From Candidatus Gottesmanbacteria bacterium (GTDB lineage: Bacteria; Patescibacteriota; Microgenomatia; UBA10105; UBA927): a DNA stretch of 64,000 bases. Position numbers and translations under genes: made by a program. The notes under the pieces were generated by a model. That model searched no databases, was not told the origin of the DNA, and was given only the letters and a program-made list of their open reading frames with translations. Positions 67-52,617 of this stretch are shown here, one piece after another (within the stretch, counting starts at the first letter, position 1; the number at the start of each line of letters is the position of its first letter). The DNA lies in contig JAHFKK010000001.1 of NCBI GenBank assembly GCA_023245335.1, positions 936,019 through 1,000,018 on the forward strand, written 5' to 3'.

Positions 67-1791
67 CTAAACCACTCCGTGTTCAATTTTTAGTCTGCTC
101 ATTTTCCCGGCGATCTCCTCTTCCTCGACGCCGAAATCAGAAAGTAATCGGTTCACGATAGAGAGCGCTGCCTCAAACTCAGGCTGGACGACGACCTGTA
201 CACCCAGGGACTTCAAGTGCCGCTGATCTTCTTCGTGATGCGTACGGCATATAATTTTTATCTTTCTGTTGAGGGATAACGCGTTCCCGATAATCATTTC
301 CTGCGTATGCCGGTCCGGAATCGCGATGACTATCGCCTTAGCTAGATCGACCTGGGCATAGTCAAGTACTTCCTTGTCCGCCGGGTCACCGTATATCGTC
401 TGAATTCCGGATTCTTTCAGAGTTTTCAAGGTCGTCTGATTATAGTCAACGACAAGAAACGGGACTCCAGCCATCTGTAGCGCACGGCCTATATACCGCC
501 CCACTCTGCCGTAGCCACATATGACCACGTGATCCGTGATGGGATATCCTTCGTCCCTCGGAAATTCATTCTCCCGCTCTTCTTCCCGAAAAAATTTCGG
601 AAAACGTCTGGCAAGTGCGGCGAATCCATAGTACACGTCGTGACTTCTCGTAATAAGCGGTGCGCTTATCATGATGGTGAGAAATGTAACCGCAACGAGA
701 ATCGCGGCATGCGTGTCATTGAGGGCGCCGGCGGCAACCCCCGCACGAGCGAGAACAAATCCGAACTCGCTGACCTGCGTGAGGTAGAGCCCAACCAAAA
801 ATGCGGTCTTACGGTGATAATTCATGAAACGAAGCAATCCGAAGCTTATAAACCATTTGACCAAAACGACGCTTGCGGTCAACGCAAGGACAACCGGCCA
901 CACCGTGAACACCGCACTTATGGGTAACGACATCCCCAGAGACACAAAGAAAACGACGGCAAACAGATCCCGCAACGGCCTGATTTCGGCAAATATCGCG
1001 TGATTCTGACTCGTCTCGGCAACGAGTAGACCCGCGAGAAACGCACCAAGGGTTATAGAAAGACCGACCGCATATGTGGTGAGTCCCACAAAAAATACGA
1101 TCCCGATGGTCGTGAGAAGCAAAAGTTCGCGGTTACGGAATGAGCTCACTGCCGTAAGGAGTTTGGGAACCCCGTGTCGGCCCAGATAGACGACAACGGC
1201 AAGGACGACTCCCGCTTTCAGCATCGCGAGGATGACCGTCCCAAAGGAGGCTATGACCGATGTGCTTCCCGAACTTTTAGAAACCGCTGCTAGAAGGATA
1301 AGAATGGGAACAACAGCAAGGTCCTGCACGACCAGCCATCCGGTGGCTACCTCACCCGGTACAGAATCAAGTTCACCGCGTTCGGAAAGGAGCTTCACGA
1401 CAATTGCCGTCGAGGAAAGGGCAGCGGCAGCTCCCAAGTACAGAGCCGGCACAAAACCCACCTGAAAAAGAACCAGGACAAGAAGGACCACAAAAAATGT
1501 CACGAGAATCTGTGCGATTGCTGGCCAGGCAATGACGTGCAGGATACGCCGGAGTTTATGAAATGAGAACTCTATGCCGAGAGCAAACAGTAGAAGCGTC
1601 ACCCCACCTTGGGAAACCATCTCTACTATCGGGTGATTAATTATGCCCGGAAGAAATGTGGCAACCACGATGCCGCCCGCGATATACCCCAGTATAGAGG
1701 GCAGCCGCAGCCGGATCGCGATGACTCCCCCGCCGATCGCTGCGGCAAGGAGAAGAAGAAATGTCGTTATGAGAGAAAGACTGGAAGACAC
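67..1791 (-). CDS. Monovalent cation:proton antiporter (CPA2/Kef-type) with C-terminal TrkA-N/RCK NAD-binding domain
   Basis: Multi-TM N-terminal half; C-terminal half has a Rossmann motif VVICGYGRVGRYIGRAL...VVDYN typical of RCK/TrkA-N domains fused to Kef-type exchangers. Confidence 0.8.
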   Translation of the reverse strand: MSSSLSLITTFLLLLAAAIGGGVIAIRLRLPSILGYIAGGIVVATFLPGIINHPIVEMVSQGGVTLLLFALGIEFSFHKLRRILHVIAWPAIAQILVTFFVVLLVLVLFQVGFVPALYLGAAAALSSTAIVVKLLSERGELDSVPGEVATGWLVVQDLAVVPILILLAAVSKSSGSTSVIASFGTVILAMLKAGVVLAVVVYLGRHGVPKLLTAVSSFRNRELLLLTTIGIVFFVGLTTYAVGLSITLGAFLAGLLVAETSQNHAIFAEIRPLRDLFAVVFFVSLGMSLPISAVFTVWPVVLALTASVVLVKWFISFGLLRFMNYHRKTAFLVGLYLTQVSEFGFVLARAGVAAGALNDTHAAILVAVTFLTIMISAPLITRSHDVYYGFAALARRFPKFFREEERENEFPRDEGYPITDHVVICGYGRVGRYIGRALQMAGVPFLVVDYNQTTLKTLKESGIQTIYGDPADKEVLDYAQVDLAKAIVIAIPDRHTQEMIIGNALSLNRKIKIICRTHHEEDQRHLKSLGVQVVVQPEFEAALSIVNRLLSDFGVEEEEIAGKMSRLKIEHGVV

Positions 1792-1844
1792 ATCAATGTC
1801 GTCACACCGGCAAAGTCAAAGGCAACATCTCATCAATATTTTCT

Positions 1845-2585
1845 TTACGCTTTTGACGTTTGATGTATGACGCTATTCATATCATCCGGTATCGGAGCCT
1901 CGACGTCAACCCGAGCCCCTCCCGTCGGGTGGGTAAATGTCACTTTCCACGCGTGCAGCATGACACGCGGCGCCCACACACGATCTGATCGTGACGTCTT
2001 TCTGCCGGCGTATTGCCAGTCTCCGACAATCGGATGGTTTATATATTTGAGGTGCACCCGAATCTGATGCGTGCGGCCCGTTTCGGGATATAACTCAACG
2101 AGACTTATTTCTTCTTTCTGTTTGCCGTTGGGCGTGATCCATGAATTGTGGACGGTATATCGCGTCACCGCTTCTTTTCCTCCGGGGACGATACCGAACC
2201 GCTCGCGGTTCCAAGGAAGCCGACCTACCGGCGCCCGAATTTCTCCGATCTGGGGAACCACACGCCCGTGCACGATGGCAAGATACGTCTTTTTGATGAT
2301 GCGTTCCTTAAATTGCCGCTGAAGTTCAACAAACGCTACAGGGTTTTTGGCGATGAGAAGACATCCGGAAGTTTCTTTATCTATCCGGTGTACAATGCCG
2401 GCGCGTTCGGAGAATATCTTTTCTTCATCTGTCGAAGGTGTAAACTCATTACTTTTTATGAAGACCTCGGCCCAATCCTGCACCGTCTCCCCTTGAACCG
2501 ATTCAGCGCGATTGACGACAATTCCCGGAGGCTTATTTACAACGAGCAGATCCGAATCTTCCAATAGTATGGGAATGGCTATCAT
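1845..2585 (-). CDS. RluA-family 23S rRNA/tRNA pseudouridine synthase
   Basis: HRIDKETSGCLLIAKN catalytic Asp motif and S4-like N-terminus. The start was moved to the internal Met (MIAIPILLED...), which gives an ATGA overlap with the upstream dksA-like stop. Confidence 0.8.
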   Translation of the reverse strand: MIAIPILLEDSDLLVVNKPPGIVVNRAESVQGETVQDWAEVFIKSNEFTPSTDEEKIFSERAGIVHRIDKETSGCLLIAKNPVAFVELQRQFKERIIKKTYLAIVHGRVVPQIGEIRAPVGRLPWNRERFGIVPGGKEAVTRYTVHNSWITPNGKQKEEISLVELYPETGRTHQIRVHLKYINHPIVGDWQYAGRKTSRSDRVWAPRVMLHAWKVTFTHPTGGARVDVEAPIPDDMNSVIHQTSKA

Positions 2586-2962
2586 GCCTTCGCTTTTTGT
2601 TTCGCAGTCAATTCCTTTTCGTGCGTGAGACACAATGTGGCAGTCGGCATGATGGCTAATCGATCCGTGTCGATCATCTGGCCGCAGACGCTGCAAAAGC
2701 CATACGTACCGTCGGTGATCCGGCCGAGAGCCTTTTCTACATTTGTAAGCTGCTGCTTGAGCTCATCAACGAGCGCGGCAACCCGATCATGATTCGATTC
2801 TTCATTTGCTTCCGTATCGGAGGCTGCGTTGTCGTTTGTCCGGTCTAGATCAGTAAACGGATCTTGGACATTGAGCTCTCGCATCCGCGCAAGGAGCCGG
2901 GCTTTCTCTTCCGTCAAATGCTTCTCGAGATCAACGAGTGTGTCTTTTGGAAACTGTTGCAT
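2582..2962 (-). CDS. DksA/TraR family C4-type zinc-finger protein
   Basis: C-terminal CSVCGQMIDTDRLAIMPTATLCLTHEK four-Cys finger after a coiled-coil N-terminus; TGA stop overlaps the rluA-like ATG. Confidence 0.7.
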   Translation of the reverse strand: MQQFPKDTLVDLEKHLTEEKARLLARMRELNVQDPFTDLDRTNDNAASDTEANEESNHDRVAALVDELKQQLTNVEKALGRITDGTYGFCSVCGQMIDTDRLAIMPTATLCLTHEKELTAKQKAKA

Positions 2963-3773
2963 AAAATATTTTCCCTTTCTCCGCTATAAACGAATGAACG
3001 GCGTGGGTGATTGGTCGTATCGATTCTCTCCCTCCGCCGCGCACATACAGCACACCAATACATTCAGCAAAAATGCCAATCAAGATCCATTGATTGGCAG
3101 TCAAGCCTCCCCAGTATACTGTACTTTCTTTCAGAAATTCAAGAGCAAACATAAAAACACTGTATAGAAAAAAGAACCAAACGCCGACAATGCCATACGC
3201 CCACTTTTTGGCGGCCGCAATCGTGGTGAGCTTCACCATAAGGGTACTCAACAACACCAGTGCCATCATTTCATAGAGTTCTACGGGATGACGCCCCCCC
3301 GCGAAGCCGACAAATCGAATTGCCCACGGAAGTGCTGTTCTCTTCCCGATTTCTAATCCGCTCATAAGTGCCGCTGTCTCGCCGATGATGATAGGAAGCG
3401 GTAACGCAACCGGCAGCGAATCCAGGACAAGACCGAGACGTACTTTATACCGGCGGCAGAGGACGATAAGCGTCGCGAGTCCCCCGACTAACGCGCCGAG
3501 CCAGGATAAACCGGGGGCAATCCAAAGAGCCGGTATAAGAAGCAATGACTTCCCGATAAAGAGATTTAAATGCGTTACGACAAAACCAAGCCGGGCGGTG
3601 AAAAGCGCAAAAATGGTACTGTAAAACGTGAGGTCAAACACCCGGTCCTCCTCGACAGCCCACCGCCGGAGCGACCGCCATACCAAAAACGAATATGCCA
3701 GCCATGCCAAAACCAAAAGGATATTCGAGACGAAGACCGATACATGCGCTATGGGAAACTCTATGGGCATCAT
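2931..3773 (-). CDS. Prolipoprotein diacylglyceryl transferase-like membrane protein (Lgt-like)
   Basis: Polytopic membrane protein with a degenerate Lgt signature (FAGGRHPVELYEM) and C-terminal LYSVFMFALEFLKES resembling the Lgt YSxxRFxxEFxRE segment; assigned by eye. Confidence 0.5.
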   Translation of the reverse strand: MMPIEFPIAHVSVFVSNILLVLAWLAYSFLVWRSLRRWAVEEDRVFDLTFYSTIFALFTARLGFVVTHLNLFIGKSLLLIPALWIAPGLSWLGALVGGLATLIVLCRRYKVRLGLVLDSLPVALPLPIIIGETAALMSGLEIGKRTALPWAIRFVGFAGGRHPVELYEMMALVLLSTLMVKLTTIAAAKKWAYGIVGVWFFFLYSVFMFALEFLKESTVYWGGLTANQWILIGIFAECIGVLYVRGGGRESIRPITHAVHSFIAEKGKIFYATVSKRHTR

Positions 3774-3790
3774 ATATCTATTCTACCGCA

Positions 3791-5083
3791 TCAAACTTTT
3801 TTTGCGTATCGAAATCGGTAGAGGCCGTATGAAAATACACACAATCCCAAAAAGAATATGACTTTCCCGACGCCGATAAGATCCGCAAGTACCCCGCTGA
3901 CGACAACGGGCAGGATGCCTGCTCCGCCGACGGAAGCAGAAAGGATGCCATACACCCGGCCCCGGACTTCACCGACCGCTTCTTTCTGGATAATGCTGTT
4001 TGACGGCACGTCCAAAAAACTGTTCGCGACACCCAGTAAGAAAAACAGTCCGAGAGCGATCGTCAAAACGAGTCCGCGGGGCACTAAGGTAAACCAAAAC
4101 GCATTGGTAGCCGCAAATATTGCCGAGACGAGCATGAGAATGGATCCTGCGGAAAGGACGCCGATATTAATGAGTCTGCCGGCAGGAAATTTGTACCCTC
4201 GGTTGCCCATCCACAATGCACCGGAAAGAATACCCAAGATAGTCGGTCCCACGATAAGAACCGACGCATCCCGTATATCGATCCTGAGAACTTTATCTGC
4301 AAAGCCAGGGCCGAGCGTCCCGAGAAGGACGAGGATAATTTGCGTACCGGTGAGAAGAACAACCGCGTCACGGAGAACGTGTGAACGAGCCACATACTGG
4401 AGACCTTCCCGCAAATCAGTCAATAGCCGCCTGAAAATATACGCCAAGTCATAGTGGAAAATATACCGGAGACTGCGCACCCCCTCACCTTGTGGTGGTA
4501 TGCCGGAGACAGAAATTGCCGCACCGACAAACAAAAGAAACAACATAAGATGTGCGCCTTCCCGACCGAATATCCGTAAAGCCGGGCCTGCAAAAATAAA
4601 TCCGACTGCCATACTGCTATAAAACGTAAAGGAAAATAAGCTGTTAGCGGATACGAGGTGTGTTTTCGGAACGAACTGCGGGATAAGCGGAACTTCGGAA
4701 GGTGTCGTCAACTGCATGATAATGGCGTAGAAAAAGACCAAAAGATAAATCGCTGCAATCTGATGGGGCAAAAGAAACACGGGAATGATAAGTAGCGCCC
4801 GGGTGATATGCGATACCAAAAGCACTGCACGCCGGTCAAGCCGGTCGACTATGACGCCTCCGACCGCGCCGAAAAGAAGAGACGGCAAACCATATGATAA
4901 AAAAAGGCCGGATACGGCAGTGTTACTCCCTGTACGTCGGTAGAGTAAAATCGCGAGCAGGAAGATAAGCATGTTGCTCGCAAGCTGTGATGCCATCTGT
5001 CCCAGCCAAAGTCTCCGAAATAACCGATTCCGAAGGACGTCCAAAATAGGGTGAACCTGCTGGGTAATCTGTGTGACCTTCAT
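3791..5083 (-). CDS. MFS transporter
   Basis: 12-TM profile; motif GAVGGVIVDRLDRR between TM2 and TM3, typical of the major facilitator superfamily. Confidence 0.8.
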   Translation of the reverse strand: MKVTQITQQVHPILDVLRNRLFRRLWLGQMASQLASNMLIFLLAILLYRRTGSNTAVSGLFLSYGLPSLLFGAVGGVIVDRLDRRAVLLVSHITRALLIIPVFLLPHQIAAIYLLVFFYAIIMQLTTPSEVPLIPQFVPKTHLVSANSLFSFTFYSSMAVGFIFAGPALRIFGREGAHLMLFLLFVGAAISVSGIPPQGEGVRSLRYIFHYDLAYIFRRLLTDLREGLQYVARSHVLRDAVVLLTGTQIILVLLGTLGPGFADKVLRIDIRDASVLIVGPTILGILSGALWMGNRGYKFPAGRLINIGVLSAGSILMLVSAIFAATNAFWFTLVPRGLVLTIALGLFFLLGVANSFLDVPSNSIIQKEAVGEVRGRVYGILSASVGGAGILPVVVSGVLADLIGVGKVIFFLGLCVFSYGLYRFRYAKKV

Positions 5084-6731: not shown

Positions 6732-8084
6732 TTAATTAGCGGCGGGTGGTTGTACCTCCGTATGTTTCCGTTCGACGGAATAGAATCGGATCCGGTCACC
6801 GCGGAAAATAAGGTCTATCTCGCCCAAGGGACCGTTCCGGTGCTTGGCGATCCTGAGCTTGGTCGGAATCTGTTCGCCCCACATCGTCTGATCGGCTTCC
6901 TCTCGGTAGATAAACATGACAACGTCTGCATCCTGTTCGATGGAACCGGACTCGCGTAAGTCAGAAAGTTCCGGTACTCTCGTCCCCCGCGCTTCTACCG
7001 CCCGCGACAGTTGTGAACAGGCAAGAACCGGAATACGGAGCTCACGCGCGAGATTTTTCAGACTCTGGGATATGATGGATACTTCCTGCACGCGGTTATC
7101 AAATTTACGGCCGGCATCGGCAAGCTGTAAATAGTCGACGATAATGAGCTTCACGCCGTGCTCCACCTGAAGCCTCCGGGCTTTCGTCCGCATTTCGACG
7201 ATATTCATGCCCGGCGTATCGTCGACATACAGCGGCGCCTCGGCCAACTCCCCCATGGCATCGGATAGCTTGGTGAAGTCATCGTCGGTAAGCCGTCCGG
7301 TTTTCAACCGCCAGGCGTCTATATCCGCCTGCGATACGAGGAGCCGGTCCACCAATTCTTCCTTGCTCATTTCCAGAGAAAATATGCCAGTCGGAATTTT
7401 TTCCTTGACCGTCGCGTATTGGGCGATATTGAGTATCATCGCGGTTTTGCCCGTGCCGGGTCGGGCGGCTAGGATAATAAGGTTCGCGTCCTGCATCCCG
7501 GCGAGCTTACTATCGAGTTCCGTAAATCCGGTCGGTATTCCCCGGAGTCCTCCGGCTCGTTTATGAAGTTCGTCCAACCGGTCAAACGACGAGGCCAATG
7601 CATCCTTAATCGGGATAAAATCGCGCCGAGTGGTTGACTGGGATATAGCAAAGATCTCCTGTTCCGCCTCTTCGACGATATCTCGTGCGTTACCTTCTTC
7701 TTTGAACGCAAGTTCCGTAATTTTGGCGGCCGACTGGACGAGCTGCCGCTTGGTCGCCTGCTCCTGGATGATGCGCGCATATTGCTCCGCATGCGCGCTG
7801 GTCGGAACGATATTGAGAAGTTCCGAAAGATACGCGGCTCCTCCGACACCCTTAAGTGACCCTGTTTTTTTCATCTGCGCCGTGACCGTCACGACGTCAA
7901 TTGGTTCATGTGCTTCATAAAGCTCCATCATCGCGGAATAAATGAGTCCGTTGGCGTCTTTGTAGAAATGGTGCGGCCGCAAAAACTCAGCGACATCTAT
8001 CATGGTGTCTTTATCGATGAGAATAGCTCCCAGGACGGACTGTTCGGCAACATCATCATGGGGCGGGACTTTCACGTTTGGCAT
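6732..8084 (-). CDS. dnaB: Replicative DNA helicase DnaB
   Basis: N-terminal DnaB helicase domain (DVAEQSVLGAILID), Walker A GARPGTGKT, RecA-like C-terminal fold. Confidence 0.9.
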   Translation of the reverse strand: MPNVKVPPHDDVAEQSVLGAILIDKDTMIDVAEFLRPHHFYKDANGLIYSAMMELYEAHEPIDVVTVTAQMKKTGSLKGVGGAAYLSELLNIVPTSAHAEQYARIIQEQATKRQLVQSAAKITELAFKEEGNARDIVEEAEQEIFAISQSTTRRDFIPIKDALASSFDRLDELHKRAGGLRGIPTGFTELDSKLAGMQDANLIILAARPGTGKTAMILNIAQYATVKEKIPTGIFSLEMSKEELVDRLLVSQADIDAWRLKTGRLTDDDFTKLSDAMGELAEAPLYVDDTPGMNIVEMRTKARRLQVEHGVKLIIVDYLQLADAGRKFDNRVQEVSIISQSLKNLARELRIPVLACSQLSRAVEARGTRVPELSDLRESGSIEQDADVVMFIYREEADQTMWGEQIPTKLRIAKHRNGPLGEIDLIFRGDRIRFYSVERKHTEVQPPAAN

Positions 8085-10622: not shown

Positions 10623-10715
10623 CCTACGTTAATTATTGGCCGGACACTTTCCCTCCCCTCACCTATTCTTTCCCCGCTGCACATACTCTTAGGCATGTAG
10701 TACGGAAGCTGTATG

Positions 10716-11269: not shown

Positions 11270-12346
11270 ATGTATAATCGGACTACTATGAACAATCCGA
11301 TCCTCATCACCAACCCGACAAACATCCGGTACCTGACCGGATTTGTCGGCGTGGCGCCCGAAGAGCGCGAAGCGTACGCTTTGCTGACTCAAAAACATAT
11401 ATTCCTTTTTACAAACGCTTTGTATAAAGAGTCAGCAAAGAATCTCCAATCTCCAATATCCAATATCCAATTACAATTCGTAGAAATCTCACGGGAAAAT
11501 CCTATATCTTCCGAACTCGCAAGGATCACCGCTGAATTCAATATAAAAAAGCTTGGATTTGAAGACGACAACCTGACGGTCGCAGAGCTCACCAAACTGA
11601 AACAAGTGTTGACTGACGTTAGCCTCGTTTCGACAAGAAATAGAATCGAAACGCTTCGGATGACAAAAAACAAAGAGGAAGTCGAGGCCATCCGACTGGC
11701 AGCAAAAATCACGGACCAATGCTTCACGTATATCATCAAACGTATCCGACCCGGAATCACCGAGTCACGACTCGCATGGGAAATAGAAAGCTTTTGCAAA
11801 GTCCGGGCAGGAGATAACGCATTCTCCCCCATCGTCGCCTTTAACGAACACAGCTCCCAACCGCATTATCAGTCCCGGAGCAATAGTCCCCTGCGGCGTG
11901 GGTCGCTTGTTCTTATGGACTTCGGCGCGAAAGTAAACGGATACTGCGCAGATATGACGCGCGTCGTTTTTTTGGGGTCTCCCAAACCGGAATGGAAAAA
12001 GGCCTATGAGACGGTTCTAGCGGCTAACGAAAAAGCGCTTAGTCTCCTTCGTTCAGGCGAGCGCCACGGCGCAACACTCGATGCAGCTGCCAAAGAAGTG
12101 ATCGCCGAAGCCGGATTCCCCCCGTACCCGCACAGCCTCGGACATGCCGTAGGACTCGCGATCCACGAAGCACCAAGACTAACTACTATGAAGGATGAAA
12201 TGCTCGCGCCCGATATGGCCGTCACGGTCGAACCCGGCGTGTATATCGAGGGCCGGTATGGCATTCGCATCGAAGATTTGGTGCGTATCAAAGATACAGG
12301 GATTGAAACACTTTCAGGTAGCCCAAAACAGCTACAAATCGTGTAA
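11270..12346 (+). CDS. M24-family Xaa-Pro aminopeptidase
   Basis: Pita-bread fold metal ligands: HSLGHAVGLAIHE and VEPGVYIEGRYGIRIEDLV; N-terminal creatinase-like domain. Confidence 0.85.
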   Translation: MYNRTTMNNPILITNPTNIRYLTGFVGVAPEEREAYALLTQKHIFLFTNALYKESAKNLQSPISNIQLQFVEISRENPISSELARITAEFNIKKLGFEDDNLTVAELTKLKQVLTDVSLVSTRNRIETLRMTKNKEEVEAIRLAAKITDQCFTYIIKRIRPGITESRLAWEIESFCKVRAGDNAFSPIVAFNEHSSQPHYQSRSNSPLRRGSLVLMDFGAKVNGYCADMTRVVFLGSPKPEWKKAYETVLAANEKALSLLRSGERHGATLDAAAKEVIAEAGFPPYPHSLGHAVGLAIHEAPRLTTMKDEMLAPDMAVTVEPGVYIEGRYGIRIEDLVRIKDTGIETLSGSPKQLQIV

Positions 12347-16109: not shown

Positions 16110-16808
16110 ATGAATACTGATATCGCCATCATGGAATTCCGTGCGGGTCCCGGCGGAGATGAAGCGCGGATCTGGTCGCAGGACCTCATGCGCATGTACT
16201 CACGATATGCGGTCATTCTCGGATGGAAAGTCGAACAGCTCGACGAGGGCGTCATACGCATCCGTGGGACCGATGTATTTACCAAACTCCAGTACGAGGC
16301 CGGTACACACCGCGTCCAGCGTACCCCGACTACAGAACGCCACGGGCGTATACATACCTCAACCGCGACGATCGCGGTACTTCCCGATGTCCCGGAAAAT
16401 GAAATATACATCCGTCCGGAGGACATAGAGTGGGATTTCTATAGAAGCGGCGGCAAAGGCGGCCAAAATGTGAATAAAGTAAGTTCGGCCGTCCGCATAC
16501 GCCATAAGCCGACCGGCATCGTCGTCCAATGCCAGACGGAACGGGATCAATACCAAAACCGCCAAGTCGCGCTCGGCATGCTGAGGGCAAAGCTCTGGGA
16601 GCAACAGCTCCTCGATCGGGAAAAGTCCGTGAGTGAACAGCGAAGCGTCATCGGCCGGGGCATGCGCGCGGAAAAGATCCGCACCTACAACTTCCCCCAG
16701 AACCGCGTCACCGATCACCGGATCAACAAAAGCTGGCACAACCTTGAGGACATCATGAACGGCAAAATGCAAAAAATTACGGAAGCGATGATTTCTATGC
16801 AAACCTAA
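16110..16808 (+). CDS. prfA: Peptide chain release factor 1 lacking N-terminal domain 1
   Basis: PxT-type codon recognition segment RVQRTPTTERHGRIHTS, GGQ motif SGGKGGQNVNK, RF1-type C-terminus RTYNFPQNRVTDHRI. Only 232 aa; it begins where E. coli RF1 is at about residue 110. Confidence 0.8.
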   Translation: MNTDIAIMEFRAGPGGDEARIWSQDLMRMYSRYAVILGWKVEQLDEGVIRIRGTDVFTKLQYEAGTHRVQRTPTTERHGRIHTSTATIAVLPDVPENEIYIRPEDIEWDFYRSGGKGGQNVNKVSSAVRIRHKPTGIVVQCQTERDQYQNRQVALGMLRAKLWEQQLLDREKSVSEQRSVIGRGMRAEKIRTYNFPQNRVTDHRINKSWHNLEDIMNGKMQKITEAMISMQT

Positions 16809-16853
16809 GTCTTCTCTTTTTTTTATTTAAAAATTGCGGAGCGTCCCCAAAAA

Positions 16854-17270
16854 TTATTTCTTTTTTTTCGGATAAAATTCCGGATTCTGCTTCTCAAATT
16901 CAGCATCGATATCATCAAGGTCTTGCAGTCTCCGAACCTCAGGAATTCTTCGCTGAAGTATACCCTTCGCAAGGCGCTCAAGTTTACTCGATACGTGCTG
17001 AACTCGCGCACCTGCATCAGGATCAGTCAAACTGAATGCGCCGCCGTTATTACCGTGGACTTTCTTAAACCCCTTATGAAAACTGTCACTCTCGTCTTCT
17101 ATCCCCTTTCTTAGCCTTGGCTCGACGGGCGCAAGCGGAGGTTGTCCTTTTCTATTGCGTTGATGCGCCAGTGTCATTGCGTCAGATACCGCAGCTAAAT
17201 TGTGCTTCTCCTTCCCGTAGTTGGCTAAATCTATAGGCAAAATCTCTGAGTAATCAGCATCGGTTGACAT
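16854..17270 (-). CDS. Hypothetical acidic protein
   Basis: Only long ORF in the gap between prfA and htrA; no recognisable motif. Confidence 0.3.
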   Translation of the reverse strand: MSTDADYSEILPIDLANYGKEKHNLAAVSDAMTLAHQRNRKGQPPLAPVEPRLRKGIEDESDSFHKGFKKVHGNNGGAFSLTDPDAGARVQHVSSKLERLAKGILQRRIPEVRRLQDLDDIDAEFEKQNPEFYPKKKK

Positions 17271-17279
17271 AATTAGGAG

Positions 17280-18476
17280 TTATCCCTGCGTCCCCAGTGT
17301 AACAGATTTGGTGAGGGTCTTGCCATCCCGCCAGATTTCGACGGAGATCGTATCCCCGACCTTCTTGCCGCTCACGACGTGGGAGAGGTCATTGGTGTCC
17401 GTGAGCTTATCACCGTTTATTTTTGTGATGATATCATCCGCCTGTATGCCCGCTTTATCCGACGGACTGCCGGATACGACACTTGCCACATAGGCGCCCT
17501 CCGGAATATCATTGAGAATCGCCATCTGGCGCGTAATCATGCGGAATTCTACCCCCATATACGGCCGGTTAAACTGACCGGTGGAATTGAAGTTCGAAAC
17601 GGCATCCTTGACCACATTTATGGGAAGCGCGAAGCCGATGCTCTGTCCTTGCTGTGCGACAGCTGTATTCACGCCGATCGCCTGTCCCGCGGAATTAAGA
17701 AGCGGCCCGCCGGAATTGCCGGGGTTGATCGCCGCATCCGTCTGGATGACGTTATCGAGCTTCTCCGTCACGTCACCGAACGTCCCTCCGGCCGTGATTC
17801 CCCGCCCGACACCTGATATGACGCCGGTCGTCACGGTGTTACGGAATTCTCCGAGCGCGGTGCCTATGGCTATGGCTGTCTGACCGACTTTAATCTTTGT
17901 GGAGTCGCCCATCTCTATGGGTTTGAGGTTAGTCGCGTTAATTTTGATGATCGCCAGGTCATTATCCGGATCGCGATATATCTTGATGACGTCATATGAT
18001 CTGTTGTCATTGGTGATGACACGGTACTTCATCTGCGTGTCAGAGACGACGTGCTTATTGGTCACGATGAGCCCATCAGTACTTATGATGAAGCCCGATC
18101 CGATATCCTGTTCCTGATTCTGACCCTGTGTTGATCGAGGTAACGGCTGCTGAGGGATCGCCTGGTTAAACGGATCGAATGGATTCTGGAAAAGATCGCT
18201 TATGCGGCTGGTTTGCGTGACCCCTATCGTGACAACCGAGGGCGATGCTTTATCGACGACATCGGTGACGACGCTTTCTTCGTTAACAACTCTAAAATTA
18301 GCACTGGGCAGTGTCGCCGGCCCTTGCGGCAGATGGACGTACCGGTCAAAAAATTGCCAGTTGAGTCCAAAAACTCCCGACGAAACCGCCCCGCCCACAA
18401 GAAACAGTACTACAGCAATGCCCAATAGCCATTTATGTAGTTTCATACCATCTTTTGAACGATATTCCTTGCCCAC
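17280..18476 (-). CDS. HtrA/DegP-family serine endoprotease with PDZ domain
   Basis: N-terminal TM helix, trypsin-like catalytic triad region (GNSGGPLLN), C-terminal PDZ. GTG start preceded by AGGAGG. Confidence 0.85.
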   Translation of the reverse strand: MGKEYRSKDGMKLHKWLLGIAVVLFLVGGAVSSGVFGLNWQFFDRYVHLPQGPATLPSANFRVVNEESVVTDVVDKASPSVVTIGVTQTSRISDLFQNPFDPFNQAIPQQPLPRSTQGQNQEQDIGSGFIISTDGLIVTNKHVVSDTQMKYRVITNDNRSYDVIKIYRDPDNDLAIIKINATNLKPIEMGDSTKIKVGQTAIAIGTALGEFRNTVTTGVISGVGRGITAGGTFGDVTEKLDNVIQTDAAINPGNSGGPLLNSAGQAIGVNTAVAQQGQSIGFALPINVVKDAVSNFNSTGQFNRPYMGVEFRMITRQMAILNDIPEGAYVASVVSGSPSDKAGIQADDIITKINGDKLTDTNDLSHVVSGKKVGDTISVEIWRDGKTLTKSVTLGTQG

Positions 18477-21141: not shown

Positions 21142-22209
21142 TCAGCTTCCAATCTTAAATTCGACCACATCGCCGTCCCGCATTTCGTATTCTTTGCCTT
21201 CACTTCGCACTTTGCCCTGCTCGCGGGCCTTTACCCAACCCCCTGCTCCCACAAAGTCGGTTAAGGACACGACATCCGCCTTGATAAATTTCTTCTCAAA
21301 GTCCGTGTGGATGACGCCTGCGGCCTGCGGCCCTTTCGTACCCTTCACGATCGTCCACGCACGCGATTCGATGATCCCGCACGTGAGAAACGATATGAGG
21401 CCAAGCATCTCGTAGGCTTTCGCGATCAAACGGTCGAGTCCGGACGCGTCGAGTCCGAGTTCTTTAAGGTACGCAACCTGCTCATCGACCGCCATGCTGG
21501 CAAGTTCCGATTCGGTCTTCGCGCAAATCATGATCGAAGGTTGTACGTCGCCTTTAACCGAATTCAGTTGATTTTCCGACACGTTATAGACGTAAAGAAC
21601 GGGCTTCATGGAAAGTAACTGCAAATCCCGGACGAGAATGCGCTCTTCCGAATCCGTAATCACCTCGCGCGCGGGTTTACCGGTATTGAGTCCCGCGATG
21701 AGCTTCTGGATGAGGACCCAGCGTTCCTGGATCTTCTTGTCATTCACGCCTCGGGGTTCGGCCTGCTTGGTAAGCGTCTGGAGGTCAGCGAGTACTAGCT
21801 CCGTCTCCACGATCTCCCGATCGCGCCCGGCATCCACATCCCCTGCCACATGCACGACGGAAGGATCTTCAAAGAATCGAAGCACGTTGACGATAAGGTC
21901 CGTTTCCCGGATATGCGACAGGAATTTATTTCCCAGTCCTTCCCCCACCGATGCACCCTTCACCAATCCTGCAATATCAACAAATTCTACGACCGCGGGA
22001 ACCAGGGGCGGCAGTTTCCCTTCCGTCGCTTCGACTACTTTCGCTAAAGCCGCTAAACGATCATCCGGCACGGGCACGACGCCGATATTCGGTTCGATCG
22101 TCGTAAACGGATAATTCGCCGCCTCCGCAACCTGCTTTTTCAAAAGCGCGTTAAATAGCGTGCTTTTCCCCGCGTTTGGAAGTCCGACTATCCCTATCTG
22201 TAGTCCCAT
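21142..22209 (-). CDS. ychF: Ribosome-binding ATPase YchF
   Basis: G1 GLPNAGKST, Obg-like GTPase fold, C-terminal TGS domain. Confidence 0.9.
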   Translation of the reverse strand: MGLQIGIVGLPNAGKSTLFNALLKKQVAEAANYPFTTIEPNIGVVPVPDDRLAALAKVVEATEGKLPPLVPAVVEFVDIAGLVKGASVGEGLGNKFLSHIRETDLIVNVLRFFEDPSVVHVAGDVDAGRDREIVETELVLADLQTLTKQAEPRGVNDKKIQERWVLIQKLIAGLNTGKPAREVITDSEERILVRDLQLLSMKPVLYVYNVSENQLNSVKGDVQPSIMICAKTESELASMAVDEQVAYLKELGLDASGLDRLIAKAYEMLGLISFLTCGIIESRAWTIVKGTKGPQAAGVIHTDFEKKFIKADVVSLTDFVGAGGWVKAREQGKVRSEGKEYEMRDGDVVEFKIGS

Positions 22210-22225
22210 ATGCCATGTACTCCTT

Positions 22226-22885
22226 TCATAATATTTCTAATTCAGAAATTGCATTTGCTGCAGAAACCAACTTCGCTTGCAGTGACTTATCTTGTTCTAG
22301 CATAACCAGATACAAGTCGATTGCTTGAATAAGATCATAGTATAAGCTATTAATTGATATCGCTAGGTATTCACTTTTATCATCTGGTCCAGAAATCTTT
22401 CCTACATGCCTGATTCCAGAAACTTCAATCTGCCCAATTCTAACTGTAGCATTCTCTCGTAGTCCCTTATAAGCAAGCCAAAATAGAGCCCGGCCATCTT
22501 GCTGAAGAAATGACTTCGGCTGGTACAAATGAACTAAACCATGTCTATACATTTTGTAAAGAACCTCGCCATTTAACTTGTAATAAGGATCAATTTTTTC
22601 ACCCATTACCTCCTTGATAAATTTAATTGACTGATCTGAAGTGGATATTTCTCTTATTTTTCCTTTGCTGTTCTTAAATTTTTTATCCAACTTCTCGTCA
22701 TACCCGCTATACAAAGTTCCTAAAAAATCGATAAAACACAGAATTTGACGGCTGGCACCAAAGTAACCACCTTGGTCTTGTCCAATATGGAGAATCGGTG
22801 CAATTTCGAGAAGTATTTGCTCCTTCAGTTCTTCTCCTAGAAAACTCTTCATTCTTGCCAAGCTCATGTTTTTATCTATTGCCAT
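22226..22885 (-). CDS. Hypothetical protein in an AT-rich island, with Rx4H (HEPN-like) motif
   Basis: GC roughly 35-40% against roughly 55% elsewhere; 219 aa; motif YRHGLVH; no other recognisable domain. Confidence 0.5.
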   Translation of the reverse strand: MAIDKNMSLARMKSFLGEELKEQILLEIAPILHIGQDQGGYFGASRQILCFIDFLGTLYSGYDEKLDKKFKNSKGKIREISTSDQSIKFIKEVMGEKIDPYYKLNGEVLYKMYRHGLVHLYQPKSFLQQDGRALFWLAYKGLRENATVRIGQIEVSGIRHVGKISGPDDKSEYLAISINSLYYDLIQAIDLYLVMLEQDKSLQAKLVSAANAISELEIL

Positions 22886-23206
22886 ATTTTTGCTTTTCTT
22901 AAATTCGGTAAAACAAAATTAAACCTAAATCGTATCGATGGGATAGTGCAATGTAGTTCTCGACTTTCAGATTCATGATGGAATTGTATCAGAGTGGTGA
23001 ATATTTTGTGAATTCAGGTGACAAGGAATTTGAACGTATATGGCTAAGGACGCTGTTACTATAAATTATTTGGCGCAAGTATTTCCGAACAAAGCTATAT
23101 TCCACGACACAGGTCAGCACCAACATACGTTTCTCTGACCATCAAGGTCCACTTCGTATGTTTTCTAACTGTGTATTGAATTCCCTCTTGTACTACAATG
23201 AAGTAA

Positions 23207-24082
23207 GTGGACAAGTTGGACAAGGTCATAGAGGATATCACTTCCCTGAAAATCCAGGGAGCGACGAACGTCGCACTCGCGGTCCTCGACTATATAGAAG
23301 AAGCGATCACCACAAACCCCAATCACTCCCCGCCTGACATAGAGTACCTGGGGACCAGACTCGCCTACGCAAGACCCACCGAGCCGCTCGCACAAAATGC
23401 GATCCGGTATATTTTTTCCGATACGTCCGCATCCCTCGTTTCCAGAATCACGCACTACCGGACATTCATCCAGGAAGGCAAACGGTCCATCCCGGCAAAC
23501 GGCAAACCGCTTCTCGTAGACGGCGGATCGTATCTCACGCTCTGCCACTCGTCGACCACCGTATCGCTTTTCCGCGAGGCACGGGCGGGCGGCGCGATGT
23601 TTAGCATGTACGTCGCGGAAACGCGGCCTCTTTATCAGGGCAGGATCACCGCCAATGAACTCATCCGCTTGGGGTTTGATGACATCACCATGATCATCGA
23701 TGACGTCGCGGTCTCCTTACTTGAAGGCCGCAAAGGCAAAATCGATGCGGTATTTATCGGCGCGGATCTCCTAGCCGATACCGGGTTTGTGAATAAAGTC
23801 GGAAGTCTCGCCGTGACGGCAGCTGCGCATCGCAACCACATCCCCGTGTATTCGTTATCGACATTACTGAAATTTGACCCGCGGCCATACACCCCGGCAG
23901 TCATCGAAAAGCGGGACTCCCATGAGATATGGGACGACGCGCCTAAAGAACTGCAATTTTACGCGCCTGCGTTTGACTACGTGCCGTATTTTCCGAACGT
24001 CCACATCGTCTGTGAGGCTGGCATCATTCCGGGCAAGAAAGTAAAGTCAGCCGCAGTAAAACAATATCCGTTCCTGGCATAA
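23207..24082 (+). CDS. eIF-2B alpha/beta/delta-like ribose-1,5-bisphosphate isomerase (e2b2 family)
   Basis: N-terminal IQGATNVALAVL and central Rossmann-like blocks of the eIF2B/MtnA family; immediately upstream of RuBisCO. Confidence 0.75.
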   Translation: MDKLDKVIEDITSLKIQGATNVALAVLDYIEEAITTNPNHSPPDIEYLGTRLAYARPTEPLAQNAIRYIFSDTSASLVSRITHYRTFIQEGKRSIPANGKPLLVDGGSYLTLCHSSTTVSLFREARAGGAMFSMYVAETRPLYQGRITANELIRLGFDDITMIIDDVAVSLLEGRKGKIDAVFIGADLLADTGFVNKVGSLAVTAAAHRNHIPVYSLSTLLKFDPRPYTPAVIEKRDSHEIWDDAPKELQFYAPAFDYVPYFPNVHIVCEAGIIPGKKVKSAAVKQYPFLA

Positions 24083-24089
24083 TAAACCT

Positions 24090-25328
24090 ATGGCTAATCC
24101 CTATCAGCACTACTTATCGCTCCATGAATCGGTCGATCCCACGAAGCACATCATCGCGACATTTGCGCTCTCGGTAACCGGTGAGCCGTTTGACCAGACC
24201 GCAGGGGGTGTCGCTGCGGAATCATCGGTCGGTACGTGGACGGATGTCGGGCTTGAGGACAAAAAAATCTGGGATATGCTGCACGCGAAAGTGACCGACG
24301 CGGATGAAAAGACGGGCACGATCACGATCGCCTATCCCCTTGACCTTTTTGAACCCGGCAGTATCCCGCAGCTTCTCTCATCTATTGCAGGCAACGTCTT
24401 CGGGCTCAAGGAAATATCACGTCTGCGGCTTCTCGACCTCGCGTTTCCGGAAGTCTACGTCAAAAGCTTCCCCGGCCCGGCGCTCGGCGTAGACGGCATC
24501 CGCAACCTCACGGGTGTCCGTGACCAACCGATCCTGGGGTCCATCATCAAACCCAAACTGGGACTCTCAAGCGCCGACCACGCCAAAGCCGCGATGGAAG
24601 TTTTTGATGAAGGCATACACCTCGTCAAGGACGACGAAAACCTGACCAGCATGTCGTTCAACAACTTTTACACCCGCGTGGATGAAGTGACGGACCGCAT
24701 GAATGAGAAGCATTATCTGGAAATCGGCAAGGCAAAAGTATACGCGTTTAATATCACGGCAAGTTACGAAGAAATGATGAAACGGGCAAACTACGTCCGG
24801 GACAAAGGCGCTAATTGTCTCATGATGGATGTCCTGACCGCAGGATTCAGCGGGGTCGCCGGCATACGAAATAGGAACTACGGCCTCATGATCCACGGAC
24901 ACCGCGCCATGCACGCGGCATTTACCCGGTCCCAAGAATACGGCGTCACCATGATGGTCATCGCCAAACTCGCGAGGCTCACTGGCGTCGACTCGTTTCA
25001 CACCGGCACCGTCGTCGGCAAAATGCAGGGCGGCAAGGATGAAGTGGTCAAGATCAACAATTTCCTCCGCTCGGATTGGTATGGCCTTAAGCCGGTACTG
25101 CCGACCGCTTCCGGCGGACTCCACCCCGGACACATTCCGGACCTTATGCACATCCTCGGCAACGATATGCTCCTCAACTTCGGCGGAGGCATCCACGGGC
25201 ATCCCGACGGCACACCCGCAGGCGCAAGGGCCGTGGTCCAGGCGACCTATGCAACACTATTAGGCGTTCCCCTCGCCCAAGCGAAAGAAAGCAAAGAACT
25301 CCAACGCGCACTCGAAAAGTGGCAATAA
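24090..25328 (+). CDS. Ribulose-1,5-bisphosphate carboxylase/oxygenase large subunit, form II/III (CPR/archaeal type)
   Basis: Active-site blocks GSIIKPKLGLS (carbamylated Lys), GIHLVKDDENL and GGGIHGHPDG; about 410 aa as for form III-like enzymes. Confidence 0.85.
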   Translation: MANPYQHYLSLHESVDPTKHIIATFALSVTGEPFDQTAGGVAAESSVGTWTDVGLEDKKIWDMLHAKVTDADEKTGTITIAYPLDLFEPGSIPQLLSSIAGNVFGLKEISRLRLLDLAFPEVYVKSFPGPALGVDGIRNLTGVRDQPILGSIIKPKLGLSSADHAKAAMEVFDEGIHLVKDDENLTSMSFNNFYTRVDEVTDRMNEKHYLEIGKAKVYAFNITASYEEMMKRANYVRDKGANCLMMDVLTAGFSGVAGIRNRNYGLMIHGHRAMHAAFTRSQEYGVTMMVIAKLARLTGVDSFHTGTVVGKMQGGKDEVVKINNFLRSDWYGLKPVLPTASGGLHPGHIPDLMHILGNDMLLNFGGGIHGHPDGTPAGARAVVQATYATLLGVPLAQAKESKELQRALEKWQ

Positions 25329-51963: not shown

Positions 51964-52617
51964 TTATTTTTGCAGACACGCTAATAACTCTTTAAGGGCG
52001 TTGCTTAACTTTATCATGCTGAGGTCAAGTCGCGTAGCAAAACTTGCAACCTCTTCCTTTTCAACGATATCAACAGGACTTTTTAACGCCATAAGTTTTA
52101 TGCCATTCATATAGCAAACTTGAGCGATCGACCCTAATTCCATATCGACAACCGCTGGATGAAACAGCTGATATAACCGGCCTCCTTCTTTTTGATCAGA
52201 AAGAACTTTATCGCCGGTCAAACAAATCCCTTTTTTCCAACTATGATTTCCTCGTATTGTCATAAGAGGTAACTTTATTTTTTCAACTTTGTGTATTCTC
52301 CCCAACGGATACCCTAATTTCGTCTGATCGAGATCATATTGGATGACATGTGTCGGCATAACAATGTCGCCTAAACTAACCTCTTTCATGAATCCGCCGC
52401 TTATCCCGACGTTTATAATCCACTCAGGATTATCATGATCTATAACATACTGCGTGACCGCAGCCGCGTGAACTTTGCCGATATTCGTCTGGACGAGACG
52501 GTATGAGTTTCCTACCCAATCCTTGGTAAATCCATACGATTGTAGCCTTTTGAGGTGAAGATTCTTTGCGAGAGGTTCGGTCTCAAATTCTGCTGCAGCG
52601 AGAACAATTATTTTCAT
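51964..52617 (-). CDS. mtnN: 5'-methylthioadenosine/S-adenosylhomocysteine nucleosidase
   Basis: PNP/UDP-1 fold; VVDMELGSIAQV catalytic block (VDMES-like). Confidence 0.75.
   Translation of the reverse strand: MKIIVLAAAEFETEPLAKNLHLKRLQSYGFTKDWVGNSYRLVQTNIGKVHAAAVTQYVIDHDNPEWIINVGISGGFMKEVSLGDIVMPTHVIQYDLDQTKLGYPLGRIHKVEKIKLPLMTIRGNHSWKKGICLTGDKVLSDQKEGGRLYQLFHPAVVDMELGSIAQVCYMNGIKLMALKSPVDIVEKEEVASFATRLDLSMIKLSNALKELLACLQK

Follow-up and report, generated by a model that had tools for sequence, protein, structure and literature searches.

The present analysis concerns a stretch of 64,000 nucleotides (64 kb; hereafter the window) from a Candidatus Gottesmanbacteria genome, in which an AT-rich island lies between ychF and the divergent gene e2b2 and carries a single gene for a 219-aa protein, gene and product both being designated X. 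Comparison with homologous loci (numbered with the prefix L) showed that the DNA at 22191-22957 is a foreign unit put into codons 6-7 of ychF by site-specific recombination, and that a look-alike ychF start at the right end of the element, encoding MGLQIG, keeps the GTPase gene intact. X itself is a functional gene under purifying selection. A joint reading, in which this site-specific insertion is combined with expression of X from the captured ychF promoter and with a role of X as a HEPN-like defence effector, is on balance considered just probable.

A foreign unit in the start of ychF

Evidence for the insertion came from both of its ends and from the closest relative found, L072, whose ychF is 86% identical and which keeps the rbcL-e2b2 ... 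ychF-rpsF order with the site empty. In L072, TGATACAAT-N7-ATG runs unbroken into MNLKVGIVGLPN, and ychF begins ATG AAT TTA AAG GTA GGC ATC GTC GGA CTT CCA. In the window, the equivalent start was found stranded upstream of X, where it reads ATG AAT CTG AAA GTC GAG A, six nt past the -10 box, and is followed by unrelated AT-rich DNA. The right end of the insertion was placed at 22191, 19 nt within the present ychF. When the left junction of the window is joined to the sequence after GGGA of the present ychF start, an L072-like arrangement results: removal of the insert gives TGATACAATTCCATC-ATGAATCTGAAAGTCG(G)GA|TAGTCGGACTTCCAAAC, which agrees with the empty L072 site TGATACAATTCCAGTC-ATGAATTTAAAGGTAGGCA|TCGTCGGACTTCCAAAC. 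Since the site is empty in L072 and joining the junctions restores it, the original ychF start was cut after codon 6 and 767 bp were inserted. The substitute start is equally distinctive, as 70 of the 120 closest ychF homologues begin MNLKVG or MNLKIG and most others a near variant, and MGLQIG was found in one of the 120 only, namely the window's own protein. The parts of the locus are as follows:

22191-22957, minus strand: whole inserted unit, 767 bp, GC 0.362
22191-22209, minus strand: substitute ychF start and right junction, ATGGGACTACAGATAGGGA, encoding MGLQIG; supplied by the element
22210-22225, minus strand: spacer of 16 nt with the ychF Shine-Dalgarno sequence, AAGGAGTACATGGCAT; strong AAGGAG
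22226-22885, minus strand: gene X, 219 aa, the sole cargo (from the listing of open reading frames)
22886-22957, minus strand: left arm of the inserted element, 72 nt, GC 0.29
22899-22976, minus strand: leader open reading frame, MNLKVENYIALSHRYDLGLILFYRI, whose 25 codons run from the old ychF start into the arm of the element (three-frame translation)
22958-22976, minus strand: stranded ychF start and left junction, ATGAATCTGAAAGTCGAGA; M N L K V and a mutated Gly codon
22983-23012, minus strand: original ychF promoter, TTCACA, 18 nt, TG-extended TACAAT; now upstream of the insert
21142-22209, minus strand: ychF, the target gene, intact with its N-terminus replaced; then rpsF, ssb and rpsR on the same strand
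23207-24082, plus strand: e2b2 (IF-2B family), GTG start at 23207; divergent host neighbour marking the host side of the spacer

The same junction signature, ATG-N3-YTN-N3-RTN-GGN-A followed by divergence, was recognised in the window, L010, L014, L036, L067/68, L020, L007-9/17, L056/57 and L073, and within the window it occurs at two places only, the stranded start and the real ychF start. The left arm proved 83% identical to the arm of L036, against only 53% for the X coding DNA of the two loci, and 65% identical to the arm of L014; a ...TCCCA[CT]...GATTT... pattern is common to it and to the arms of recombinase-bearing elements. An identical 16-nt spacing with related sequence separates X from ychF in L014, L016 and L069. 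The putative attB would be TGATACAAT...ATGAATCTGAAAGTCGGGATAGTCGGACTTCC, and the putative attP would be the substitute start joined to the left arm.

The initial annotation had proposed a horizontally acquired island, and this was borne out by the stranded start, the empty site in L072 and the recombinase elements found at the same site in other relatives; the ychF-e2b2 junction, compared across relatives, showed that the island is not a conserved core gene, L072 being uninterrupted. The island had also been placed at a housekeeping promoter region. A promoter does lie upstream, but X sits inside the ychF coding start, downstream of the captured promoter.

The base composition was likewise as described. 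GC content was 0.35-0.39 across 22200-23250 versus 0.53-0.57 on either flank (300-nt windows), and no stretch of the 64 kb had a lower GC content than the island (minimum 0.357, mean 0.499, standard deviation 0.03, 0.2th percentile; 767-nt sliding window). GC content at third codon positions (GC3) was 0.32 in X and 0.62 in ychF, the range of ychF, e2b2 and the RuBisCO gene being 0.62-0.68. The coordinates of the single gene were reproduced, with 16 nt between the X stop codon and the ychF ATG at 22209. The approximately 320 bp of AT-rich non-coding DNA previously assigned to the island measure 321 nt (22886-23206, GC 0.36), but only 72 nt of these (22886-22957) belong to the insertion; the remaining ~250 nt are the host's own AT-rich divergent promoter region (GC 0.38), which holds the original ychF promoter and the stranded first ychF codons. 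Rfam and tRNA scans of the island found nothing.

The arrangement bears on how X and ychF may be expressed. The original promoter is of the sigma-70 type, with 10 of 12 matches and a TG extension (promoter scan), and together with the MNLKV start it lies 91 nt upstream of X. The leader open reading frame stops 13 nt before the X ATG, and an equivalent 25-codon leader in L014 ends in ...SFYLT*, 12 nt before X. No terminator-like site was found in 22000-23400, thus none between the old promoter and ychF. X would be transcribed from the captured ychF promoter, behind the 25-codon leader, which would itself be translated, and as the first gene of the ychF-rpsF-ssb-rpsR transcript it would be expressed constitutively. 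From the arrangement of these signals, a place as the first real gene of that transcript, by way of the captured promoter, is the most likely one for X.

Between the -10 box and the original ychF ATG there are only 6-7 nt in the window, L010, L014, L072 and L073, TGATACAAT itself standing at this distance from the intact ATG of L072 and from the stranded starts of L010 and L014. No Shine-Dalgarno sequence was found between the box and the original ATG in the window, L010, L014 or L072. The short distance from box to ATG suggests that the native ychF mRNA may be leaderless in these bacteria. The extended -10 boxes, TGATACAAT or a variant, were located at 22983-22976 in the window, 9815-9831 in L010, ~2030-2040 in L014 and 4984-5001 in L072.

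Other occupants of the ychF site

Relatives revealed what else enters this position. In L010, whose ychF is 70% identical and which shares the rbcL-e2b2 ... ychF-rpsF synteny with the window and L072, the 7.3 kb behind X contain a gene resembling a small terminase, some ten small genes and a large serine recombinase gene that overlaps the substitute ychF start with its last 68 nt. L074 (ychF 78% identical) carries an HTH_17 gene and a like recombinase overlapping ychF by 59 nt. Such recombinases were recognised by their Resolvase, Recombinase and zinc-ribbon domains; a C-terminal fragment alone occupies the same ychF-adjoining position in L020, and in L007/L017 and L056 a recombinase lies within elements sharing the junction signature. 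The recombinase and ychF genes span 16454-18067 and 18000-19058 in L010, and 3413-5059 and 5001-6068 in L074. The recombinase frame thus enters ychF for 59-68 nt in another frame and, because it extends into ychF, the C-terminus of the recombinase would change between the integrated and the excised state.

Islands lacking a recombinase were also found. In L073 (ychF 79% identical), a 4-kb recombinase-less island lies between the stranded start and ychF and carries a SIR2 gene (PADLOC E 3.5e-19). This island (988-5000; GC 0.36-0.40 versus 0.53) further encodes a 341-aa protein with a weak CARF/HEPN-TM match and a 438-aa protein, the gene for the latter also standing beside the recombinase in L074. 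In L067, a Type IIG restriction enzyme and X follow the stranded start. Other islands at the ychF site thus carry restriction systems and SIR2. The window unit (left arm, X, 16-nt spacer and substitute start) recurs whole in L014. Since there is no recombinase in the 64 kb, the window unit is a non-autonomous remnant or cassette and not a complete element; it would be either an L010-type element internally deleted down to its left-end gene or a mini-cassette moved in trans. An arrangement in which X lies outside the L010 recombinase element, on the host side, was considered and dropped, because the stranded ychF start upstream of X places X inside.

In L015 and L016, two or three junctions succeed one another before ychF. 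The ychF-start mimics lie at 11967, 13450 and 14277 in L015 (corresponding to 7967, 9450 and 10277 in L005) and at 10644 and 11453 in L016, and each is followed by a related arm, ...TTTTCACC[GA][TC]CCCACAATTTGATTT..., and by one to three small genes. Their appearance is that of small cassettes without a recombinase, arrayed in tandem and each closed by a ychF-start mimic.

Some observations fit less simply. L067 contains, at 6798-6962 (5736 in L068), a 54-codon copy of the ychF start with a native-looking promoter, TGTTACAAT-N6-ATG, placed 228 nt past X, with the full ychF ~800 nt further on; at 2480, further upstream, there is in addition a stranded start of 6 codons. This 54-codon copy is at odds with a simple crossover model. 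In L072, genes for 613-aa and 116-aa proteins (2768-4965), neither with a Pfam or PADLOC match, lie in the e2b2-ychF interval upstream of the intact ychF promoter, so that this interval varies for causes besides insertions into the ychF start. A scan of the genome collection with e2b2 found only a distant Gottesmanbacteria locus of different gene order.

On the host side of the island, e2b2 and a form III-like RuBisCO large-subunit gene adjoin it at 23207-25328; this pair is tied to nucleotide salvage in genomes of the Candidate Phyla Radiation. The second-lowest GC stretch of the window (0.40; 51964-52617, minus strand) covers a 217-aa open reading frame, directly preceded by one of 422 aa which, judging by its sequence alone, we take to be adenosylhomocysteinase-like.

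The X family, its neighbourhoods and its fold

X has 60 close homologues of 205-230 aa, whose named hosts are only Gottesman-, Woese- and Roizmanbacteria, and its family comprises at least 184 clusters at 50% identity (cluster representatives, E <= 1e-3), one of them from a Bathyarchaeota genome. A distant relative of 361 aa from a Bathyarchaeota metagenome-assembled genome (P0204/P0222; OGD56814.1) has its X-like part at residues 191-314, after an unassigned N-terminal region. The family reaches archaea and may occur fused. The ratio of nonsynonymous to synonymous substitution rates (dN/dS) was 0.04-0.13, also between copies without a recombinase nearby, as expected of the purifying selection stated above.

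The history of X differs from that of its neighbour. Identities of X and ychF were 85 versus 58% between L020 and L067, 87 versus 65% between L015 and L016, and 60 versus 75% between the window and L067, while between the window and L010 both stood at 70%. GC3 of X remained within 0.22-0.37 across hosts in which the GC3 of ychF ran from 0.29 to 0.62. Both the disagreement with the ychF identities and this low GC3 in every host show that X moves horizontally. The steady GC3 was seen in the window, L010, L014-L016, L020, L032, L036, L067, L069 and L070, synonymous sites being saturated between copies; it points either to continued replenishment from a pool of low GC content or to some constraint acting on the gene.

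The neighbourhoods of the homologues point to defence. X is the immediate upstream neighbour of ychF in at least five genomes (window, L014, L032, L069 and L070). Elsewhere, it forms part of hsdR-hsdM-X-102aa-hsdS operons in L022, L030 and L031, where hsdM and hsdS enclose it in tight translational packing. In L007-9/17, L021 and L067, it follows the gene of a 1042-aa Type IIG/ISP-like enzyme at a distance of 8 nt. The recombinase element of L056/57 has X next to hsdM, hsdS and the gene of a GajA/PtuA-like ATPase, and in L018/19 X comes behind Shedu SduA and a ResIII endonuclease. HsdR and GmrSD lie near it in L055, RadC, MazG and a Schlafen-type helicase precede it in L024, L033 and L039, and a second serine recombinase family with HTH_17 genes adjoins it in L026, L029, L034, L054 and L061. 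The ATPase of L057 (98-1846, minus strand; 582 aa, ABC-type, beside hsdS/hsdM) matches the GajA, PtuA, AbiL and mad3 models, which stand for defence ATPases, and ~240 of its C-terminal residues are unassigned. X has the profile of a gene of defence islands and integrative elements, and its neighbours suggest a role in defence. The earlier description of X as a defence gene is supported in so far as homologues stand in Type I and Type IIG operons and near Shedu, GmrSD and the Schlafen-type helicase, but the support is one of association.

The molecular reading of X rests on a motif and a predicted structure. The YRHGLVH motif reported previously is present at residues 113-119. In a sample of 79 diverse family members, used for family scans and column counts, it forms part of [MILV]-[YWF]-R-[HN]-G-[TL]-[VI]-H-x-[YF]-x-P-K (residues 112-124), and the conserved positions are:

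R114: 78 of 79
Position 115, H or N: 70 of 79 (H 64, N 6)
G116: 75 of 79
H119: 79 of 79
P123: 79 of 79
Y102: 76 of 79
W136: 74 of 79
H160: 77 of 79
D184: 76 of 79
Position 53, D or E, in helix 41-60: 71 of 79 (D 61, E 10)

An AlphaFold2 model built with the 79 sequences reached a predicted local distance difference test score (pLDDT) of 96.5 and a predicted template modelling score (pTM) of 0.92, and shows helices at 9-32, 41-60, 64-74, 83-97, 100-120, 178-198 and 200-214 with a five-stranded sheet at 133-177. The R-x4-H motif ends helix 100-120 in this model and lies in coil in a shallower one, and the label "helix 3" for helix 100-120 rests on secondary-structure mapping only.

In HEPN domains as described in PMC3710099, the R of R-x4-6-H is directly followed by N, D or H, helix 2 carries an acidic residue, typically as E-x3-[KR], inserts occur between helices 2 and 3, and helix 4 is kinked. 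In the same work, at least 16 HEPN clades were linked to restriction-modification systems, and a PrrC-like back-up role was proposed (PMC3710099). R-x4-H-x-Y is the signature of the HEPN toxin HepT (PMC7641770), and it also occurs in the close X family. Across the 79 members, X has R-x4-6-H with a polar residue after the R; position 57 is A, S or T, so that the E-x3-[KR] form of the acidic residue is absent. X would fit the HEPN description if its core helices were 9-32, 41-60, 100-120 and 178-214 of the model. X would then be a HEPN-like, metal-independent RNase, its cleavage leaving 2',3'-cyclic phosphate, in which R114 and H119, closing helix 100-120, act together with D53 of helix 2, and the sheet at 133-177 after the motif would be a regulatory or substrate-binding part. 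As a defence-type effector, it would act alone or alongside restriction-modification systems and would stay inactive until infection, in the manner of the anticodon nuclease PrrC, which serves as back-up to a Type I restriction enzyme.

Several results weigh against this reading. No model of the HEPN clan (CL0291) in Pfam matched any of the 79 members even at E <= 10, nor did any Pfam family of whatever kind recur among them at that threshold; the profile search of X against HEPN families, proposed by the initial annotation, thus gave no match for the window protein or its relatives, and the window X had no usable Pfam, NCBIfam or PHROGs match either. A sequence search of the PDB found nothing for X, by single sequence or by profile, and Foldseek against the PDB returned nothing better than E 0.6 with either model (best E 0.96 with the pLDDT 96.5 model) and no significant HEPN match. 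A four-helix up-and-down bundle recognisably like solved HEPN structures was not found in X, whose loop between helix 3 and helix 4 contains a 55-residue beta sheet not described for HEPN. The sole borderline fold match was an uncharacterised Arthrobacter phage protein in BFVD (E 2.8e-3; template modelling score, TM, 0.47). The window X lacks a restriction-modification partner or an antitoxin-like neighbour and matches no PADLOC model (PADLOC-DB 2.0), the 79 members giving scattered single matches only (E > 9e-4), and some homologues have contexts without recognisable defence genes (methyltransferase, RibD_C and MFS genes in L028 and L040-44). No HepT/MntA pair was found in the window or in the loci fetched. 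X homologues were absent from phage and plasmid collections (tblastn) and from an IMG/VR scan. As to mobility of the window copy, the 64 kb yielded no recombinase homologue (tblastn, E <= 1e-3) and no further junction signature. Partial dyad symmetry about a central dinucleotide, as in att sites of large serine recombinases, was not detected around the crossover in ten ychF starts.

The HEPN assignment of the initial annotation is a reasonable but only candidate reading. It is supported by R-[H/N]-x3-H, the most conserved feature of the family, at a helix end, where the structure prediction places it, and by the acidic residue in helix 2, but neither a profile match nor a HEPN structure in the Foldseek search accompanies them. 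An HEPN-like RNase was ranked first among the functions of X, as a tentative assignment that falls well short of probable, followed by a restriction-linked enzyme of another or new fold and, in third place, by a role in element maintenance. A PD-(D/E)XK endonuclease was considered and rejected, as RE_ApaLI matched one of the 79 members below the cut-off (E 0.13) and the conserved residues lack D...(D/E)xK; a likeness to EcoO109I (Foldseek E 0.63, TM 0.17 only) was not recurrent.

Among the alternatives, it is a possibility to be taken seriously, if a minority one, that X is a defence or restriction-linked enzyme of an undescribed fold and not HEPN, for instance a nuclease or hydrolase with H119, H160 and D184 (possibly a metal site) and R114 and K140, its R-x4-H likeness being convergent or coincidental. 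H160, D184, W136 and P123 are indeed conserved as strongly as the R/H motif, no HEPN profile matches X, and the pLDDT 96.5 model has no Foldseek neighbour in the PDB, the only near-significant fold match being the Arthrobacter phage protein. However, the position of the motif, the polar residue after the R and the acidic helix-2 residue all fit the HEPN description, and the ApaLI and EcoO109I matches lend this account neither recurrence nor the D...(D/E)xK pattern. It is unlikely that X instead serves the mobile element, as a directionality or accessory factor for the serine recombinase or as an addiction or exclusion function stabilising the element. A large serine recombinase, from one or other of at least two families, is indeed present at most 10 kb from X in L010, L007/L017, L056, L026, L029, L034, L054 and L061; X often adjoins small HTH_17 excisionase-like genes, and in the window, L010, L014 and L036 it stands right beside the left arm. 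Yet it is intact and under purifying selection without a recombinase nearby in the window, L014, L069 and L070, on contigs short enough for a more distant one to escape notice, and packing between hsdM and hsdS would not suit a directionality factor.

An anti-defence (anti-restriction) protein that protects mobile elements on entry is very unlikely, in spite of the carriage of X by integrative elements and its adjacency, in L049 and L055, to a gene with a weak ArdC N-terminal match. The hsdR-hsdM-X-hsdS order and the place behind Type IIG enzymes suggest cooperation with restriction and not its inhibition, the conserved Arg, His and Asp residues suggest an enzyme, and the phage and plasmid collections gave no match. 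Least probable of all, and hardly credible, is that X belongs to the ychF operon of this lineage by ordinary vertical descent, its low GC content having a non-historical cause. Its position directly upstream of ychF in at least five genomes and the like identities of X and ychF between the window and L010 could be so explained, but the stranded start and promoter upstream of X, the empty L072 site, the unique substitute N-terminus, the incongruent identities in other pairs and a GC3 half that of the host genes could not.

Known systems and what the locus adds

ychF as an integration target is already known elsewhere; the present arrangement is not. Pipolins of Actinobacteria are serine-recombinase elements that integrate at ychF (PMC11551731). 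In pneumococci, the int gene of a defective prophage lies next to ychF and is reported to influence ychF expression (PMC8637289, citing Chen et al. 2019); the pneumococcal attB is listed there between DUF951 and ychF. The elements studied here resemble these in the ychF target, the recombinase gene next to ychF, the defence cargo and the scope for an insert to influence ychF expression. They differ in that the hosts are Microgenomates, of the Candidate Phyla Radiation, that the crossover falls within codons 6-7 and that the element supplies the new start; moreover, the window copy has a single gene and no recombinase, and no primer-independent PolB was seen in the elements annotated here.

In staphylococci, the serine recombinases of staphylococcal cassette chromosome (SCC) elements integrate at the end of rlmH (orfX) without disrupting its reading frame, elements accumulate there in tandem, and recombinase-less pseudo-SCC persist beside complete elements. 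Serine recombinases, a preserved housekeeping frame, tandem elements and recombinase-less units are thus shared features. SCC, however, occupies the 3' end of its target gene, and the units described here the 5' end of theirs; because the insert lies between ychF and its promoter, the housekeeping promoter would drive the cargo. Integrons rely on a tyrosine recombinase and attC hairpins, and their cassettes are promoterless single genes. The likeness lies in promoterless single-gene units inserted site-specifically downstream of a resident promoter, in tandem as in L015/L016, and the difference in the platform, which here is the start of an essential-type gene regenerated by each cassette.

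On the side of the protein, X resembles PrrC of the EcoprrI hsd operon in that its homologues are embedded in Type I operons, the window copy having no adjoining restriction gene, and HepT (DUF86) in the R-[H/N]-x3-H at a predicted helix end, the Y two residues after the H (close family) and the acidic residue of the putative helix 2. It differs from PrrC in lacking an ABC ATPase domain, from HepT in lacking an MNT partner, and from both in the 55-residue beta sheet that follows the motif; neither profiles nor fold comparison detected a similarity.

What is new is the placing of cargo between a housekeeping promoter and a regenerated gene start, with cassettes stacked at ychF in the Candidate Phyla Radiation, and an unnamed protein family, confidently folded in the model, that appears wired into restriction operons. 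A bolder proposal, at present rather doubtful, is that the Microgenomates ychF start is an integron-like platform and X the founding member of new-fold, restriction-linked RNase effectors. On such a platform, serine-recombinase elements and recombinase-less single-gene cassettes would stack, each regenerating the ychF start, and would be expressed from the captured, apparently leaderless ychF promoter, with X, which reaches archaea, as the commonest cargo seen.

The genomes of Candidate Phyla Radiation bacteria are tiny, and few defence systems or mobile elements have been recognised in them. In these bacteria, the first codons of ychF form a defined integration hotspot, with junctions readable from the sequence, which swaps restriction systems, SIR2 and X between lineages, and a stranded MNLK[VI]G start behind a TGnTAnAAT box provides a simple signature with which to search for such islands. 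The arrangement also shows how a gene can be placed by a mobile element between a housekeeping promoter and its gene without harm to the host. The X family is compact, widespread and unnamed, with a confident predicted structure that has no solved relative, and it recurs in restriction operons; if X is a restriction-linked RNase, it would represent a new class of effectors.

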